Source: Elusimicrobiota bacterium
Lineage (GTDB): Bacteria; Elusimicrobiota; Elusimicrobia; UBA1565
Assembly: GCA_043819795.1 (NCBI GenBank)
Contig: JBDREN010000095.1
Span: 2,047-66,046, forward strand
Reading direction: 5' to 3'
DNA: 64,000 nucleotides
The translations under genes were made by a program, and so were the position numbers. How positions within the stretch are numbered: position 1 is the first letter of the stretch; each line of letters opens with the position of its first letter. Shown piece by piece: positions 25,527 through 33,280 of the stretch. A model generated the notes under the pieces. The model worked only from the letters and a program-made list of their open reading frames with translations, made no database searches and was not told the DNA's origin.

Positions 25527-25916
25527 CTACGCGAGGACCGCCTTGTAGCCGTAGCAGAGGACGCCGGCCTCGCCGACCTCTCGGATCTTGCGGAACGCCA
25601 ACCGGACCTGGGTCCCGATCTCCACGTCCTGGGGGTCGCAATCGGTCACCTGCATGGTCAACCGCACGCCGTGGTCGAGCTCGACCACGGCCAGCACGTA
25701 CGGGGCCTGGTCCTTGAACGCGCTCGGCGGCGTCCGGATCACCGTGAAGGTCTGGATCGTCCCCGTGTCGGCGAGCTTCACCGTCTCGAACTCGCGGGAC
25801 CGGCAGGCGTCGCAGATCAGCCGCGGAGGCATGAACGCCTTGCCGCACTTGACGCACTTGCCCGCCTCCAGCCTGTAGCGCTGCGGGATCTCCCTCCAGT
25901 ATCTCTGCGGTTGCAT
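25527..25916 (-). CDS. DUF35 Zn-ribbon/OB-fold protein (scaffold of the thiolase/HMG-CoA synthase complex)
   Basis: 129 aa. CxxC...CxxC ribbon (CVKCGKAFMPPRLICDAC) followed by an OB-fold region. Adjacent to thiolase and HMGCS, as in archaea. Confidence 0.8.
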   Translation of the reverse strand: MQPQRYWREIPQRYRLEAGKCVKCGKAFMPPRLICDACRSREFETVKLADTGTIQTFTVIRTPPSAFKDQAPYVLAVVELDHGVRLTMQVTDCDPQDVEIGTQVRLAFRKIREVGEAGVLCYGYKAVLA

Positions 25917-25929
25917 GGCGATCCCTCCT

Positions 25930-27087
25930 CTATACGGCCGCGAAGATCGAGACCATCGCGCTTCCCCCGGAGCCGCCCATGTTCTGGGCCAGCCCCACGC
26001 GCGCCTTGGCCACCTGCCTCGGCCCGGCCTGCCGCCTGAGCTGCTCGGTGATCTCGACGATCTGCGCGACGCCGGTCGCGCCCACGGGATGCCCCTTGGA
26101 CTTGAGCCCCCCGCTCATATTCACGGGGATCCTGCCCCCAGGCCCCGTCTCCCCGCTCTCGACGAGCTTGCCGCCCTTGCCCGGTTTGGCGAAGCCGAGG
26201 GCCTCGGTCGCCATGATCTCGGCGATCGTGAAGCAGTCGTGGACCTCGGCCACGTCGATGTCCGCCGGCTTCACCTTGGCCGCCTTGTAGGCCCTGGCCG
26301 CCGCCTCCTTGACCGCGCCGAGCGCGCAGAGGCTTCTCCTCGCGTGGAGCGCTATGGTGTCGGTCGCCTGGCCGATCCCCAGGACCTTCACCAGGCCGTT
26401 CTTGGCCAGTTTCTTCGCCCTCGCCATGGGGCAAAGCACCAGCGCCGCGGCGCCGTCGGTCACGGGGGAGCAGTCCAGCATCCGCAGTGGGTCCGCCACC
26501 ATCGTCGAGGACTCCACGTCCTCCGCCGAGATCTTCATCCGGAACTGGGCGTTCTCGTTGTTGACCCCGTTGGCGTGGTTCTTGACGGCCACGAGCGAAA
26601 GCTGACGCCTGGTCGTCTTATGCTCGTGCATGTGCCTTCTGGCCATCATGGCGTAAAGGCCGGGGAAGGTCGCCCCGTTATAGGCCTCGTACTCCTGGTC
26701 CGCGGCCGTGCCCAGCGCGCAGGTGGTCTCGTCGCCGCTCACGTCCGTCATCTTCTCGACGCCGACGACCAGGGCGCAGTCGCTCAGGCCCGCGGCGACC
26801 TCGGCGTAGCCCGACCGGAAGGCCGCCGCGCCCGAGGCGCAGGCGGACTCCACGCGCGTGGCCGGAACGCCGGCGCAGCCGAGATAGTCCGCCACCAGGG
26901 ACGCCGCATGCTCCTGGCCGGTGAAGAGCCCGCTCGACATGCACCCGACGTGGATCGAGTCGATCCCTCCGGCCTTGCTCTCGCTCATGGCCTTGAGCGC
27001 GGCCTCCACGGCGAGGTCCCGAAGGGAGCTCTTCCATATCTCCCCCCACTTCGTCATCCCGACACCGACGATCGCCACATCCCTCAT
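25930..27087 (-). CDS. acetyl-CoA acetyltransferase (archaeal-type/SCP-x-like thiolase)
   Basis: 385 aa with [15 protein letters not shown], active-site Cys context [12 protein letters not shown], and GHPVGATGV. Confidence 0.85.
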
Positions 27088-27098
27088 GATATCGGCTC

Positions 27099-28154
27099 CT
27101 ATCGCTCCGCCATCCGGATCTTCTTGCGGAACTTCATATAGGTCCCGTAGTTCAGGTACCTCTTGTCGTTGTCCAGGAGCTCCCGCGTCTTGGGCGCGAG
27201 GTCCTGGACCTCCTTGATCCTCTTGGTCGTCCTGAAGACGAAACCGTCGCTTCCGGCGCCCGACCCGTATGAGACGACCAGGATGTTGTCTCCGGGCTTG
27301 GCGACGTCGAGGACGGCGGTCAGCCCCAGCGGGGAGGACCCTGAGTACGTGTTCCCGAGCCTATTGATCAGCCAGCCGGTGAGGATCTGGCTCTCCTTGA
27401 AGCCGAGCCTCTTGCCGGCCCGCAGGGGGAACTTGCCGTTTGGCTGATGGAATACCGCGTACCGGAAGTCCGCGGGCTTCATCCCCGCTTTCTCCATCAT
27501 GCCTCGGGCGGCGCCCAGGACGTGCTTGAAGTATGAGGGCTCTCCGGTGAACCTGCCGCCGTGGTTGGGGTAGCGCATGTACTCGCGTCGCCAGAAGTCC
27601 GGCGTGTCGGTCATGAAGGCGTAGGCGTCGATGAGCTCGGCCACGCACCGCTCCTCCTCCGCTCCGAATACGAAGGCCGCGGCCCCGGCCGCGGCCGAGT
27701 ATTCGAGAGCGTCGCCCGGCGCCCCCTGGGAGGTGTCCGCGCCGATCCCCATGGCGTACTTCACGGCGCCGGCCTTCACCAACTGGCTGGCCACGAACAT
27801 CCCCTCCGTGCCCGCCTTGCAGGCGAACTCCAAGTCCGCCGTACGGCATTCGGGGGTGGCGCCCAGCGCCTCGGCCACGACCGTGCCGGTCGGCTTGACA
27901 GCGTAGGGATGGGACTCGTAGCCCACGTACACGGCCCCGATGTCGGCGGGATCGATCCCGGCCCGCTTGACCGCCCTGCGGGCGGCCTCCACGGACATCG
28001 TGATGGTGTCCTGGTCCGGCGAAGGAACGGACTTTTCCTCCAGCATCAGGCTCTTCTTGTAGCTCGGAGCGTCCGCGCCCCAAGCCGCGGCGATCTCCTC
28101 CACCTTGATCCGGTTCCTGGGGATGTCCGCCCCGTACCCGCAGATTCCGACCAT
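27099..28154 (-). CDS. hydroxymethylglutaryl-CoA synthase (archaeal type)
   Basis: 351 aa with [22 protein letters not shown], catalytic Cys context [13 protein letters not shown], and HQPNGKFP. Confidence 0.85.
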
Positions 28155-30936: not shown

Positions 30937-30938
30937 GG

Positions 30939-32546
30939 CTACATCCGGTAGATCGACGACCGGTAGTCCCCGATCGGCGCGTTAAGCGACGCCGAGATGC
31001 CCAAAGCCAGCACCTCGCGCGTGTCCAGGGGATCGATCACGCCGTCGTCCCACAGCCTGGCCGTGCTGTAGTACGGGCTGGATTCCCTCTCGTATTTCTC
31101 GAGGATCGGGCGCTTGAACTCTTCCTGATCCTCGTCCGTCATGCTCAGGCCCTTTTTGGCGAGCTGGTTCATCTTGACCGTGCACAAGACGTTGGCCGCC
31201 TGCTCGCCGCCCATCACCGAGATCCTTCCGGAGGGCCACATCCAGAGCATCCTCGCCCCGTAGGCCCTCCCGCACATGCCGTAGTTCCCGGCCCCGTACG
31301 AGCCGCCGATGATGACCGTGAACTTCGGCACGTTCGCGTTGGAGACCGCGGCCACCAGCTTGGCGCCGTCCTTGGCGATACCCCCGTGCTCGTACTTCTT
31401 GCCCACGATGAAGCCCGTGATGTTCTGGAGGAAGAGCAGCGGGATCTTCCGGAAGCAGCAAAGCTCGATGAAGTGCGTGCCCTTGAGCGCGCTCTCCGAG
31501 AACAGGATGCCGTTATTGGCGAGTATGCCGACCGGATAGCCCATGATCCGAGCGAAGCCCGTCACGAGGGTCGTCCCGTAGTTCTTCTTGAACTCGTGGA
31601 AGCGCGAGCCGTCCACGATCCTCGCGATGATCTCCCGCATGTCGAACTGCCTGCGCAGGTTCGCCGGCAAGATCCCGTAGATCTCCGAGGGATCGCACGC
31701 GGGCTCCTCCGGCGCGGCCTGCCCGACATCGAACTTCCGGGCCGGCCTCAGGTTCTCCACTATGTTCCTGGTAATCCTGATGGCGTCGAGCTCGTCGAGC
31801 GCGTAATGATCGGAGACGCCCGAGATCCTGCAATGCACGTCGGCGCCCCCGAGCTCCTCTTCGGTGACCTCCTCGCCGGTCGCCGCCTTGACCAAAGGCG
31901 GGCCGCCCAGGAATATCGTGCCGCGGTTCTTGACCATCACCGTCTCGTCGCTCATGGCCGGGATGTACGCGCCGCCCGCCGTGCAGGAGCCGAAGACCAC
32001 CGAGATCTGCGAGATGCCCTTCGCCGAGAGCACCGCCTGGTTGTAGAAGATCCGTCCGAAGTGGTACTTATCCGGAAAGACCTCGTCCTGCATAGGCAGG
32101 AAAGCCCCCCCGGAGTCCACGAGGTAGACGCAGGGCAGATTGTTCTCCAGCGCCACCTCCTGCGCCCTCACGTGCTTCTTCACCGTCACGGGATAGTAGG
32201 TCCCGCCCTTCACGGTGGCGTCGTTGGCCACGATCACCACCTCCCTGCCGCGCACCGACCCGATCCCCGTGACGATCCCGGCGCAGGGCGGCTCGTCCCC
32301 GTAGAGACCGTTGGCCGCCAGAGCGCTGAGCTCGAGGAACGGCGTATCCTTGTCCAGGAGCGCCTTGATCCTGTCCCGCACCAGCAGCTTGCCGCGAGAC
32401 ACGTGAAGGTCTCTCGCCTTCTGCGACCCGCCCCGCTTCGCCTTCTCGAGGCTCTCTTTGAGCTCCGCGACGCGCGCCTCGTTGGACTTCTCGTTCTCCT
32501 TGAACTCGGCGCTTTGCGTGACCGTCTTCGAGATGATCCTATCCAT
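30939..32546 (-). CDS. methylcrotonyl-CoA carboxylase beta (carboxyltransferase) subunit
   Basis: 535 aa with [60 protein letters not shown]. Confidence 0.85.
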
Positions 32547-32572
32547 ATCGCCCTTCCCCGGTCTCCTTGCGG

Positions 32573-33280
32573 TTACATCCGGCCGACGGCGACCAGCTCC
32601 GAGCCGGCGCCGCGACGCACCAGGAGCCTCCCCCGCCTGTCGATGCCCTCGATCTCCCCGAGAGCCTCGCCCTCCGCGTCGACGTAGCTCTCGCCCACGT
32701 GCGCCATGATCGAGAGGTAGTCGTCCACCTGCGAGGCGAACCCCCGCTCAAAAAGCAGCTCGAGCCTCTCGCGCAGCGCCTCCAGCACGGACTCGAGCAC
32801 CGCCTCCCGATCGAACGCGCGCCCCGTCTCCATCAGCATCGAGGTCGCGCGGCCGGAGAGCTCCGGCGGGAAGTCCTTCACGTTGACGTTGAGACCCACG
32901 CCGCAGACGATGTATCGCCCGCCTTTATCGTCGCCGCCGGCCCTCGAGAGGATGCCGCAGATCTTTCTATCTCCGACCAAGACGTCGTTGGGCCACTTGA
33001 TGGCGCAGGCGAGGCCGTGCTCGGAAAGCGCCCGCGCCACCGCCAGCGCGGCGGCGTGGTTGACGACCGGCGCGTCTTCGAACGCGTCGGGCGGCCTCGC
33101 GATCATCGAGAAGTAGAGGTTCACGCCCGGAGGCGAATGCCACGCATCGCCCTTCCTTCCGCGGCCCTTGCTCTGGCGGTCGGCCACGACCGTCGTCCAA
33201 GCGTCGTCGCCCGCGTCCCGCGCGATCTCGACGGCGCGGTCCTGCGTGGACCCCAAGTCGTCGAAGCGGAGGACCTTCAC
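32573..33280 (-). CDS. birA: biotin--[acetyl-CoA-carboxylase] ligase (no HTH domain)
   Basis: 235 aa with GTG start and AAGGAGA SD. Contains the GSTQD and [20 protein letters not shown] motifs. Confidence 0.85.

Follow-up and report, generated by a model that had tools for sequence, protein, structure and literature searches.

An operon joining 3-methylcrotonyl-CoA carboxylase genes to an archaeal-type HMG-CoA synthase complex in an Elusimicrobiota bacterium: a possible HMG-CoA supply unit

Results

We analysed a 64-kb stretch of DNA (the window) from an uncultured Elusimicrobiota bacterium. Eight co-directional ORFs on the minus strand were confirmed (Table 1), in the gene order birA, carboxyltransferase (CT), crotonase, biotin carboxylase (BC), BT/BCCP, HMG-CoA synthase (HMGCS), thiolase and DUF35. 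Their successive junctions are +26, +2, −10, −4, +18, +11 and +13 nt, in agreement with a first-pass annotation of this DNA, which had described eight such genes with anything from a 10-nt overlap to a 26-nt gap between them. From CT to DUF35 every junction measures 18 nt or less, and terminator-like excess is absent. The annotation had also reported neither a lyase nor an isovaleryl-CoA dehydrogenase in the window; we likewise found no lyase and no acyl-CoA dehydrogenase (ACAD) within the 64 kb. An ACAD gene lies on the same contig, 785 nt past the window end. The gene of a caspase-domain lipoprotein forms a ninth co-directional ORF, 5 nt past DUF35; it has no conserved adjacency to the cluster in other loci and is probably outside the operon's pathway.

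Table 1. Genes of the operon and the ORF that follows it
Gene	Position in window	Strand	Product
birA	32573-33280	-	group-I biotin-protein ligase, 235 aa, without N-terminal HTH
CT	30939-32546	-	3-methylcrotonyl-CoA carboxylase (MCC) beta subunit by sequence, carboxyltransferase, 535 aa
crotonase	30154-30936	-	crotonase-fold hydratase, 260 aa; putative 3-methylglutaconyl-CoA hydratase
BC	28667-30163	-	biotin carboxylase part of split MCC alpha, 498 aa, without BCCP
BT/BCCP	28173-28670	-	BT(partial)/BCCP carrier protein, 165 aa; ATGA overlap with BC
HMGCS	27099-28154	-	archaeal-type HMG-CoA synthase, 351 aa
thiolase	25930-27087	-	DUF35-associated (archaeal-type) acetoacetyl-CoA thiolase, 385 aa
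DUF35	25527-25916	-	scaffold protein, 129 aa; CxxC...CxxC zinc ribbon and OB fold
caspase-domain lipoprotein	24259-25521	-	420 aa; PF00656, 46 bits; lipoprotein-type N-terminus

Domains were assigned by Pfam and NCBIfam profile searches with family cut-offs. BirA matched TIGR00121 with 166 bits (cut-off 83) as well as PF03099, and a single tblastn match genome-wide marks birA as the sole biotin ligase gene of the host. The CT product matched PF01039 (515 bits). Against the PDB it scored highest with human MCCB (767 bits) and Pseudomonas aeruginosa MCC-beta (744 bits), and more weakly with geranyl-CoA carboxylase beta (427 bits) and PCC-beta (about 278 bits or less). By these comparisons CT is clearly of the MCC-beta type; a PCC/ACC-type identity, the propionyl-/acetyl-CoA carboxylase alternative named by the first-pass annotation, was rejected on the distance between the PCC-beta and MCCB scores.

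The crotonase matched PF00378 (174 bits) and, under the respective cut-offs, the NCBIfam models PRK07468 (234 bits) and gamma-carboxygeranoyl-CoA hydratase (184 bits). Its top PDB matches were generic ECHs, with Myxococcus xanthus LiuC at 96 bits. Because its gene lies between MCC subunit genes, a placement retained in 30 loci, the substrate is probably 3-methylglutaconyl-CoA. BC contains PF00289, PF02786 and PF02785 followed by a tail of about 55 aa. The BT/BCCP protein carries the biotinyl-lysine motif SMKM (...VIESMKMETEI...) and PF00364 (64 bits), and its alignment spans residues 529-650 of P. aeruginosa MCC-alpha. The match to BT_MCC_alpha was weak and under cut-off (20 bits); when the BC tail was joined to the protein, it extended to profile positions 19-116 and was still weak (22 bits). 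Related loci have the split alpha subunit too, with a BC of about 500 aa and a BT/BCCP protein of about 170-200 aa.

MCC-beta, crotonase-fold hydratase and MCC-alpha thus stand in the same order as in the Pseudomonas liu cluster (liuRABCDE), supporting the earlier comparison with liuB-liuC-liuD. In contrast to that cluster, the operon has no liuA and the host genome no liuE, alpha is split into BC and BT/BCCP, and the HMGCS/thiolase/DUF35 trio stands in the place of liuE.

HMGCS matched the archaeal equivalog TIGR00748 (527 bits, cut-off 353) and the Methanothermococcus thermolithotrophicus HMGCS of the solved complex 6ESQ/6ET9 (460 bits). The motifs holding the catalytic Glu, Cys, His and Asn are all present (ESHPY, FACK, FHQPN, GNTYS), and one tblastn match in the host genome identifies it as the only HMGCS. 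The thiolase matched PRK06064 (522 bits, cut-off 420), PF22691 and PF00108; its translation shows CAS (CxS), HDCF (HDxF) and GHP, in agreement with the motif list of PMC12960953. DUF35 matched PF12172 (Zn-ribbon, 43 bits) and PF01796 (OB, 80 bits), and its translation contains CVKCGKAFMPPRLICDACRS. The profile matches, the similarity to 6ESQ/6ET9 and the intact catalytic motifs support the view of the trio as an archaeal-type complex. To the extent that PMC12960953 describes the archaeal thiolase/HMGCS/DUF35 complex it cites (2018), three adjoining genes, motifs and folds are shared. The host differs in being bacterial and in having the trio in an operon with MCC and hydratase rather than with mevalonate genes, and most other bacterial carriers of the cluster lack any mevalonate pathway.

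The host assembly comprises 241 contigs at 90.3% completeness, so that absences are provisional. HMG-CoA lyase, whether of the HMGL or the CitE type, was not found anywhere in it, which extends to the genome the absence noted earlier for the window, and no canonical isovaleryl-CoA dehydrogenase could be named. Away from the operon, contig C223 carries in a single string IDI2, HMGR, MVK, UbiX, UbiD, both AcnX subunits (large and small) and IPK, by gene content a complete archaeal-type (anhydromevalonate-type) mevalonate pathway. The first-pass annotation had considered that a canonical liuE and liuA, with a mevalonate pathway elsewhere, might explain each part separately; half of this was found, the mevalonate set being present and the lyase not. 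The MEP genes dxs, dxr, ispG and ispH are also present, and host isoprenoids therefore do not depend on mevalonate. Searches of the host genome for leuA, ilvC and ilvD found none, whereas ilvE is present; leucine would therefore be imported and could be transaminated, and the host appears unable to synthesise branched-chain amino acids.

We surveyed 61 genomes of the same order for co-occurrence of archaeal-type HMGCS and HMGR. HMGCS was found in six, all among the ten HMGR-positive genomes, and in 0 of 51 HMGR-negative ones (Fisher p = 3.8e-6). This tracking, the single HMGCS and the C223 mevalonate set together mean that the trio of the host is best explained by the mevalonate pathway and need not fill the slot of the lyase, as first proposed. 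One relative from the order (G228) has the arrangement ACAD-CT-ECH-BC-BCCP-HMGCS-thiolase-DUF35 and also HMGR. An operon headed by birA, as first described, is seen only in the host; in G228 an ACAD occupies that slot. In two other HMGR-positive relatives, G264 and G290, no MCC adjoins the trio, and a mevalonate role therefore does not require the MCC link.

These two genomes would also fit two independent neighbours, a trio for mevalonate entry and a leucine-catabolic MCC/hydratase whose lyase is non-homologous or lies on the missing tenth of the host genome. Gene order that depends on lineage, with the trio first in most phyla and CT first in the host, points the same way. We nevertheless think this improbable, given the tight CT-DUF35 junctions and the lack of a lyase in closed cluster-bearing genomes as well. 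Two different gene orders and two non-orthologous carboxyltransferases are found with this adjacency, which speaks for selection to keep both sets together.

In 32 of 80 related loci, spread over about seven other phyla that include Aminicenantes, Zixibacteria, Ignavibacteria, Eisenbacteria, Glassbacteria and Acidobacteriota, the trio has as neighbours a CT of the MCC-beta type, a crotonase and split BC/BCCP. With this recurrence in several phyla and in G228, the arrangement is not due to chance. We found no publication describing it. Variant clusters use a different, GcdA/MCC-beta-like CT; BC is retained in every cluster. HMGR is missing from 28 of the 32 cluster-bearing genomes of other phyla, so that mevalonate supply cannot be what the cluster is conserved for. 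HMG-CoA lyase above cut-off is likewise missing from 28/32, a strong CitE-like lyase from 25/32, and all three from 15/32 at curated cut-offs, including the closed chromosome CP070742. Since ispG was detected in 30/32, incompleteness is not the cause. To judge from gene content, phyla without HMGR or lyase would need reverse operation of either the synthase complex or the carboxylase. Only from these other phyla, where both HMGR and lyase are missing, does the first-pass annotation's proposal of directly linking 3-methylcrotonyl-CoA and acetyl-CoA gain real support.

Lyase-free catabolism of leucine or isovalerate might be the main role in the host too, with MCC and hydratase making HMG-CoA, HMGR as a side drain and the complex reversed (HMG-CoA + 2 CoA -> 3 acetyl-CoA). 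With a lyase, a thioester is lost as free acetoacetate; the reversed complex would retain it. The reaction energies of thiolase (about +25 kJ/mol) and HMGCS (about -25 kJ/mol) roughly cancel, and citrate synthase reversal in vivo is a precedent. Conservation of the cluster in so many loci, often without HMGR and lyase, favours this possibility, as do the missing lyase of the host itself, an adjacent co-directional ACAD in about 10 loci (inside the operon in two, L051 and L072) and a locus (L065) where the cluster adjoins genes for a PCC-type carboxylase, methylmalonyl-CoA mutase and epimerase. The host may just have acquired a reductase on top of a catabolic module. We consider a mainly catabolic role in the host possible but rather doubtful, however: in vivo reversal of HMGCS has never been demonstrated, known anaerobic isovalerate degraders employ a lyase (PMC5109826), and the perfect trio-HMGR tracking in the order would not be expected if the role were purely catabolic. 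In addition, HMGCS residues showed no pattern that separates HMGR-less genomes from others, one weak position excepted.

In the opposite direction, acetyl-CoA would be built up to 3-methylcrotonyl-CoA and isovaleryl-CoA, from which iso-branched fatty acids could be primed. This would call for forward operation of the trio and of the hydratase, the latter as a dehydratase, and for MCC in reverse, its biotin carboxylase acting as an ATP-yielding decarboxylase, comparable to Myxococcus aib/LiuC. HMGCS would then work in its usual direction, and the reactions of biotin carboxylases lie close to equilibrium and can be reversed in vitro. Retention of BC even in variant clusters would fit, as would the lack of leuA, ilvC and ilvD, which leaves no internal 2-oxoisocaproate for isovaleryl-CoA. 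But a leucine-importing cell is already supplied with isovaleryl-CoA, the neighbours in other loci (PCC, mutase, epimerase and beta-oxidation genes) look catabolic, Myxococcus relies on the dedicated decarboxylase AibA/AibB instead, and we know of no in vivo case of ATP-forming MCC reversal. We therefore hold this anabolic route to be unlikely.

Discussion

We give about an even chance to a reading of the operon as an HMG-CoA supply unit, in which two routes enter one pool with the mevalonate pathway as sink. The data show which genes are present, the families they belong to, how far they are conserved and what they occur with; every substrate, flux and direction is our inference. Judged by family membership and gene order, BirA would biotinylate the BT/BCCP protein; BC, BT/BCCP and CT would form a split-alpha MCC that carboxylates leucine-derived 3-methylcrotonyl-CoA with ATP; and the crotonase would hydrate 3-methylglutaconyl-CoA to HMG-CoA. 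Thiolase, HMGCS and DUF35 would, as in archaea, convert three acetyl-CoA to HMG-CoA via channelled acetoacetyl-CoA. HMG-CoA reductase and the archaeal-type pathway on C223 would be the sink, so that imported leucine as well as acetyl-CoA could yield isoprenoid units. The same complex may also return surplus leucine-derived HMG-CoA to acetyl-CoA, because the thiolase/HMGCS pair should be near equilibrium overall. Counted against the supply unit are the coexisting MEP pathway, the location of the mevalonate genes on another contig, the HMGR-less carriers and the lack of a nameable isovaleryl-CoA dehydrogenase. In most other phyla that have the cluster no outlet for HMG-CoA is visible, which points to a possible lyase-free link between leucine and acetyl-CoA.

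In M. xanthus, an alternative isovaleryl-CoA pathway uses MvaS, LiuC, AibA/AibB and AibC. It resembles the host operon in that HMGCS is co-encoded with 3-methylglutaconyl-CoA enzymes, linking acetyl-CoA and a branched C5 acyl-CoA. It employs a bacterial-type MvaS and a CoA-transferase-like decarboxylase, whereas the host has an ATP-grasp biotin carboxylase set and an archaeal-type HMGCS complex.

Haloarchaea have a leucine-to-mevalonate shunt. Such flow through MCC and hydratase is also known from trypanosomes (PMC5993337), and a shunt has been proposed for Calditenuis archaea (PMC12979851). The proposed supply unit has the same sequence from leucine through MCC, methylglutaconyl-CoA hydratase and HMG-CoA to HMGR, parallel to thiolase/HMGCS. 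Unlike in these shunts, a single bacterial operon of the host encodes both routes, its lower pathway belongs to the archaeal anhydromevalonate type and a full MEP pathway coexists.

An archaeal mevalonate pathway in a bacterium has been described for Candidatus Promineifilum breve (Chloroflexota; Kanno et al. 2024, cited in PMC13001223). As far as the citing paper presents that case, it shares with the host genes for an AcnX-type dehydratase, a UbiD/UbiX-type decarboxylase, IPK, HMGR and MVK; the host pathway, which is predicted from its genes, differs in belonging to the Elusimicrobiota and in having its upstream trio tied to MCC.

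An archaeal-type HMG-CoA synthase complex encoded with a 3-methylcrotonyl-CoA carboxylase

The predicted operon (25527-33280, minus strand) comprises eight genes from birA to a DUF35 gene, and all eight assignments of the first-pass annotation were borne out by Pfam and NCBIfam searches (Table). In gene order the junctions measure +26, +2, -10, -4, +18, +11 and +13 nt, and the third-position GC of the eight reading frames is strong (0.89-0.96; window GC ~66%). A caspase-domain lipoprotein gene follows 5 nt past DUF35 as a ninth co-directional gene, and it is not conserved beside the cluster in the other loci. 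A scan for promoter and terminator consensus sequences within the operon gave nothing above chance and no excess of terminators; the only Rfam matches in the window were two tRNAs. Among sequencing runs, four contain parts of the stretch, all of DNA type and none of RNA.

Table. Genes of the operon and of the mevalonate gene string on contig C223 of the same genome
Feature	Location	Strand	Support
birA	operon gene 1	minus	TIGR00121
carboxyltransferase, 535 aa	operon gene 2	minus	Pfam/NCBIfam, MCC-beta by sequence
crotonase	operon gene 3	minus	PF00378
biotin carboxylase, 498 aa, without carrier domain	operon gene 4	minus	Pfam/NCBIfam
carrier protein, 165 aa, with SMKM	operon gene 5	minus	Pfam/NCBIfam
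HMG-CoA synthase, archaeal equivalog	27099-28154	minus	TIGR00748, 527 bits (cut-off 353)
thiolase, PRK06064-type	operon gene 7	minus	Pfam/NCBIfam
DUF35 protein, Zn ribbon and OB fold	operon gene 8	minus	PF12172 and PF01796
HMGR	C223 string		PF00368, 355 bits
MVK	C223 string		TIGR00549, 247 (cut-off 163)
AcnX large subunit	C223 string		PF04412, 450
AcnX small subunit	C223 string		PF01989, 106
UbiD-family decarboxylase	C223 string		TIGR00148, 312
UbiX	C223 string		PF02441
IPK	C223 string		NF040647, 143 (cut-off 120)
IDI2	C223 string		TIGR02151, 343 (cut-off 281)

The carboxyltransferase (CT) groups with the beta subunits of 3-methylcrotonyl-CoA carboxylase (MCC) and not with the carboxyltransferases of propionyl-CoA (PCC), acetyl-CoA or geranyl-CoA carboxylases. 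It scored 767 bits against human MCCB and 744 bits against MCC-beta of P. aeruginosa, compared with 427 bits for the geranyl-CoA carboxylase beta subunit and 278 bits or less for PCC-beta. We infer that CT, biotin carboxylase (BC) and carrier protein constitute an MCC, with ATP-dependent carboxylation of 3-methylcrotonyl-CoA as the predicted reaction.

All parts of the MCC alpha subunit (BC, BT and BCCP) are present, including the biotinyl-lysine motif, but on two polypeptides. The carrier protein aligns with residues 529-650 of P. aeruginosa MCC-alpha. Its BT-domain match is weak (20-22 bits; cut-off 31) and lengthens when the C-terminal tail of BC is appended to the carrier sequence, with scores that remain below the cut-off. 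The carrier alignment and the lengthened match suggest that the break in the alpha subunit falls inside the BT domain or immediately ahead of it, a position that is tentative because of the low BT scores. The split between BC and BCCP is kept in related loci.

For the crotonase, the Pfam match confirmed the fold, and every NCBIfam equivalog fell below its cut-off; M. xanthus LiuC scored 96 bits compared with 150 bits for generic hydratases of this fold. Its position in the operon points to a methylglutaconyl-CoA hydratase, and its sequence to no specific hydratase family.

The HMG-CoA synthase (HMGCS) is of the short archaeal type and keeps the motifs ESHPY, FACK, FHQPN and GNTYS with the catalytic Glu, Cys, His and Asn. 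Against the enzyme of the solved thiolase/HMGCS/DUF35 complex of M. thermolithotrophicus it scored 460 bits. In the translated thiolase the motifs CxS, HDxF and GHx are kept as CAS, HDCF and GHP, and the HMGCS, thiolase and DUF35 genes (the trio) are adjacent, with gaps of 11 and 13 nt. Repurposed bacterial acylase complexes, in contrast, have lost the HMGCS and thiolase catalytic motifs that this trio keeps (PMC12960953). By sequence the trio is of the archaeal channelling type, and its products are predicted to assemble around a common CoA site. HMGCS and DUF35 are both single in the genome (tblastn).

Lyases, acyl-CoA dehydrogenases and amino acid genes in the genome

The absence of an HMG-CoA lyase, first noted for the window, holds for the whole assembly (4.99 Mb, 241 contigs, 90.3% complete). 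In it neither PF00682 nor NF004283, which would indicate HMG-CoA lyase (liuE), had any match, and neither had PF03328 for CitE-like lyases. Since the genome lacks any HMGL-like domain, it has neither HMG-CoA lyase nor LeuA.

Three acyl-CoA dehydrogenases (ACADs) are encoded, all of short-chain type and none inside the operon. Their best PDB matches are butyryl- and short-chain ACADs, with isovaleryl-CoA dehydrogenases scoring lower, and none of the three can be named isovaleryl-CoA dehydrogenase (liuA). One ACAD gene lies on the operon's contig, 31.5 kb upstream of the first gene of the operon and beyond the window end. We considered it as the orthologue of the ACADs linked to the cluster elsewhere and dropped the idea, as an ACAD on contig C37 was closer by BLAST.

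With E. coli queries, ilvE was found in this 90%-complete genome and leuA, ilvC and ilvD were not. The gene content suggests a probable auxotrophy for branched-chain amino acids together with the ability to transaminate them. That the cluster might be a new leucine biosynthesis replacing the isopropylmalate route was discarded because ilvC and ilvD are missing besides leuA, which makes a general branched-chain auxotrophy likely.

An archaeal-type mevalonate pathway and its co-occurrence with the complex

A complete archaeal-type mevalonate gene string is located outside the window at C223:7632-15348 (Table); PMK and MDD are not among its genes. In gene content the string matches the archaeal anhydromevalonate-phosphate pathway. 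The one bacterium in which this pathway has been demonstrated to date belongs to Chloroflexota, according to a citing article (Kanno et al. 2024, cited in PMC13001223). The genome also carries dxs, dxr, ispG and ispH of the non-mevalonate (MEP) route. The ispG gene (C100:38303-40207, on another contig) lies in a 776-aa open frame in which the Pfam match is split in two, which suggests a large insertion or fusion; the match is likewise split in the related genome G228 and in an Eisenbacteria genome (G021).

Across 201 sampled genomes of the phylum, HMGCS occurred only in this genome and in G228. The gene order of G228 is the same from CT through ECH (the crotonase), BC, BCCP, HMGCS and thiolase to DUF35, with an ACAD gene in place of birA. 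Among 61 genomes of the order, ten had HMGR and six had an archaeal-type HMGCS. All six HMGCS carriers were among the ten with HMGR, and HMGCS was absent from all 51 HMGR-negative genomes (p = 3.8e-6). MCC genes adjoin the trio in two of the six carriers (this genome and G228) and are nearby or partial in G270 and G257; none were seen within 9-10 kb of the trio in G264 and G290. From the co-occurrence of HMGCS with HMGR and the pattern of MCC neighbours in the six carriers, we conclude that in this order the trio is tied to the mevalonate pathway and is often, but not necessarily, linked with MCC.

A second trio copy is present in G257 and in G264, two relatives from the same family. These copies (L096 on G257:C41 and L094 on G264:C120) are more divergent, with 56-58% HMGCS identity, and neither MCC nor mevalonate genes adjoin them in the stretch examined.

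The first-pass annotation had proposed that the trio takes the place of the lyase and that the operon may link 3-methylcrotonyl-CoA directly with acetyl-CoA. This reading is partly supported: the CT is of MCC type and the genome lacks a lyase, whereas the co-occurrence of HMGCS with HMGR explains the trio of this organism by the mevalonate pathway. A direct link gains real support only from other phyla, in which both HMGR and the lyase are missing.

The cluster in other phyla

When one genome per species was scanned, at least 590 HMGCS relatives were found, of which the best 80 (65-77% identical) were examined as loci. The labels of these metagenome-assembled genomes include Aminicenantes, Zixibacteria, Acidobacteriota, Ignavibacteria, Eisenbacteria, Glassbacteria, Calditrichota, Planctomycetota and others. 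Directly behind the trio, 32 of the 80 carry an orthologue of MCC-beta (64-71% identical), then a crotonase, BC and in most cases BCCP; of the remainder, many are truncated just past DUF35. Variant clusters (L046, L051, L062, L072 and L081) combine the trio and a crotonase with an AccC-size BC, a different CT of ~580 aa and a different BCCP of 200 aa. This CT scored about equally against glutaconyl-CoA decarboxylase A (237 bits) and MCC-beta (231-237 bits).

Strong HMGR matches were found in 4 of the 32 genomes with the canonical cluster, HMG-CoA lyase above cut-off in 4 and a strong CitE-like protein in 7. Nineteen had no strong match to any of the three, and 15 had nothing above any curated cut-off. 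Two closed chromosomes bear the cluster: CP070742 has none of HMGR, HMG-CoA lyase and CitE-like protein, and CP070825 has a CitE-like protein only. As a positive control for completeness, ispG was present in 30 of the 32, so that those genomes have no need of mevalonate. Judged by gene content, HMG-CoA in those organisms would have no recognisable fate beyond the two arms of the cluster. It follows that one of two enzyme sets regarded as irreversible has to work in reverse, unless there is an enzyme yet to be recognised.

For the phyla without HMGR, a reversed trio with a catabolic role is the proposal that best fits the cluster's neighbours, ACAD, PCC and mutase genes. An ACAD gene is adjacent to and co-directional with the cluster in about ten loci, and in L051 and L072 it is embedded in the operon. 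In a Zixibacteria supercluster (L065:374-19300), genes for a B12-binding mutase subunit, an ACAD, a metallo-beta-lactamase-fold protein, a PCC-type CT, BC, BCCP, methylmalonyl-CoA mutase and epimerase form the first part, and the trio followed by MCC-beta, crotonase, BC and BCCP the second. Against a reversed trio, the corresponding bridge is one-way in trypanosomes (PMC5993337), and known anaerobic degraders of isovalerate use the lyase (PMC5109826).

In a tree of 61 HMGCS sequences, the window's enzyme fell in an unresolved polytomy, not firmly beside that of G228. A specialisation of HMGCS by residue between HMGR-positive and HMGR-negative genomes was rejected, as only one alignment column, residue 273, parts the two groups, and weakly. 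It is Ala in HMGR-positive genomes, including the archaeal enzyme, and mostly Ser in HMGR-negative, MCC-linked ones. The window's HMGCS has Ser at this site, five residues past the catalytic Asn, despite HMGR in the genome.

Direction of the pathway

The thiolase condensation costs ~+25 kJ/mol, about as much as is released at the HMGCS step, which leaves the pair near equilibrium; either direction would benefit from the channelling of acetoacetyl-CoA. Biotin carboxylases also work near equilibrium. Reversibility of the whole module between 3-methylcrotonyl-CoA and three acetyl-CoA is therefore conceivable, and the flanking steps would decide its direction.

In this genome, MCC and the hydratase would run forward and bring leucine carbon into HMG-CoA, and the trio would run forward and bring in acetyl-CoA, both arms feeding HMGR. 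This arrangement is favoured by the strict co-occurrence of HMGCS and HMGR in the order, and a reverse flow through the trio would be a plausible overflow. It is possible, though less likely than not, that the trio acts physiologically in reverse as a thiolytic cleavage of HMG-CoA (HMG-CoA + 2 CoA -> 3 acetyl-CoA). Leucine and isovalerate catabolism would then end without a lyase and with the thioester conserved, in many uncultured phyla and, at leucine excess, also here, where the complex would be bidirectional and serve both mevalonate synthesis and leucine catabolism. Such a reaction would be a counterpart of the reversed citrate synthase of the roTCA cycle.

HMG-CoA synthase is usually regarded as working in the biosynthetic direction only, and leucine catabolism as necessarily ending with HMG-CoA lyase. 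A conserved operon of MCC, hydratase and synthase complex implies that one of these two textbook directions does not hold for much of the uncultured bacterial diversity, unless an unknown enzyme exists. If the synthase complex is reversed, one thioester (about one ATP) would be saved per leucine, for energy-limited sediment bacteria. The present lineage is a contrast, as the trio strictly follows HMGR and the archaeal-type mevalonate pathway; here the operon may be a leucine-to-isoprenoid feeder. Its gene content extends the archaeal mevalonate gene set to a bacterial phylum beyond Chloroflexota. Every protein of the operon is of a known family. The novelty lies in how the genes are combined, in the division of MCC-alpha over two proteins, in the lack of lyases of either type and, for this lineage, in the connection with an archaeal-type mevalonate pathway that coexists with MEP; no account of the cluster turned up in full-text literature searches. 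The operon products are all small and soluble.

birA and its upstream region

The genome has a single birA (tblastn). Genes of the biotin/lipoate ligase family are repeatedly found close to the cluster in other phyla: in one locus such a gene separates HMGCS from thiolase (L073:2594-3376), and in seven Aminicenantes-type loci such a gene lies upstream of the cluster (e.g. L002:4537-5343). Given this recurrence, the association of birA with the cluster may be more than incidental.

Upstream of birA, ~970 nt of intergenic DNA are followed by divergent genes. This region contains a tiny open reading frame at 33592-33654 (+), MAKKKAKKKTKKKATKKKKK, with 14 Lys among its 20 aa. A promoter-like site (33443-33471) lies ahead of it, a purine-rich stretch, AGAGAGGG, is found a few bases 5' of it, and directly after its stop there is a terminator (33676-33703) with a strong 12-bp GC hairpin and a T-run.
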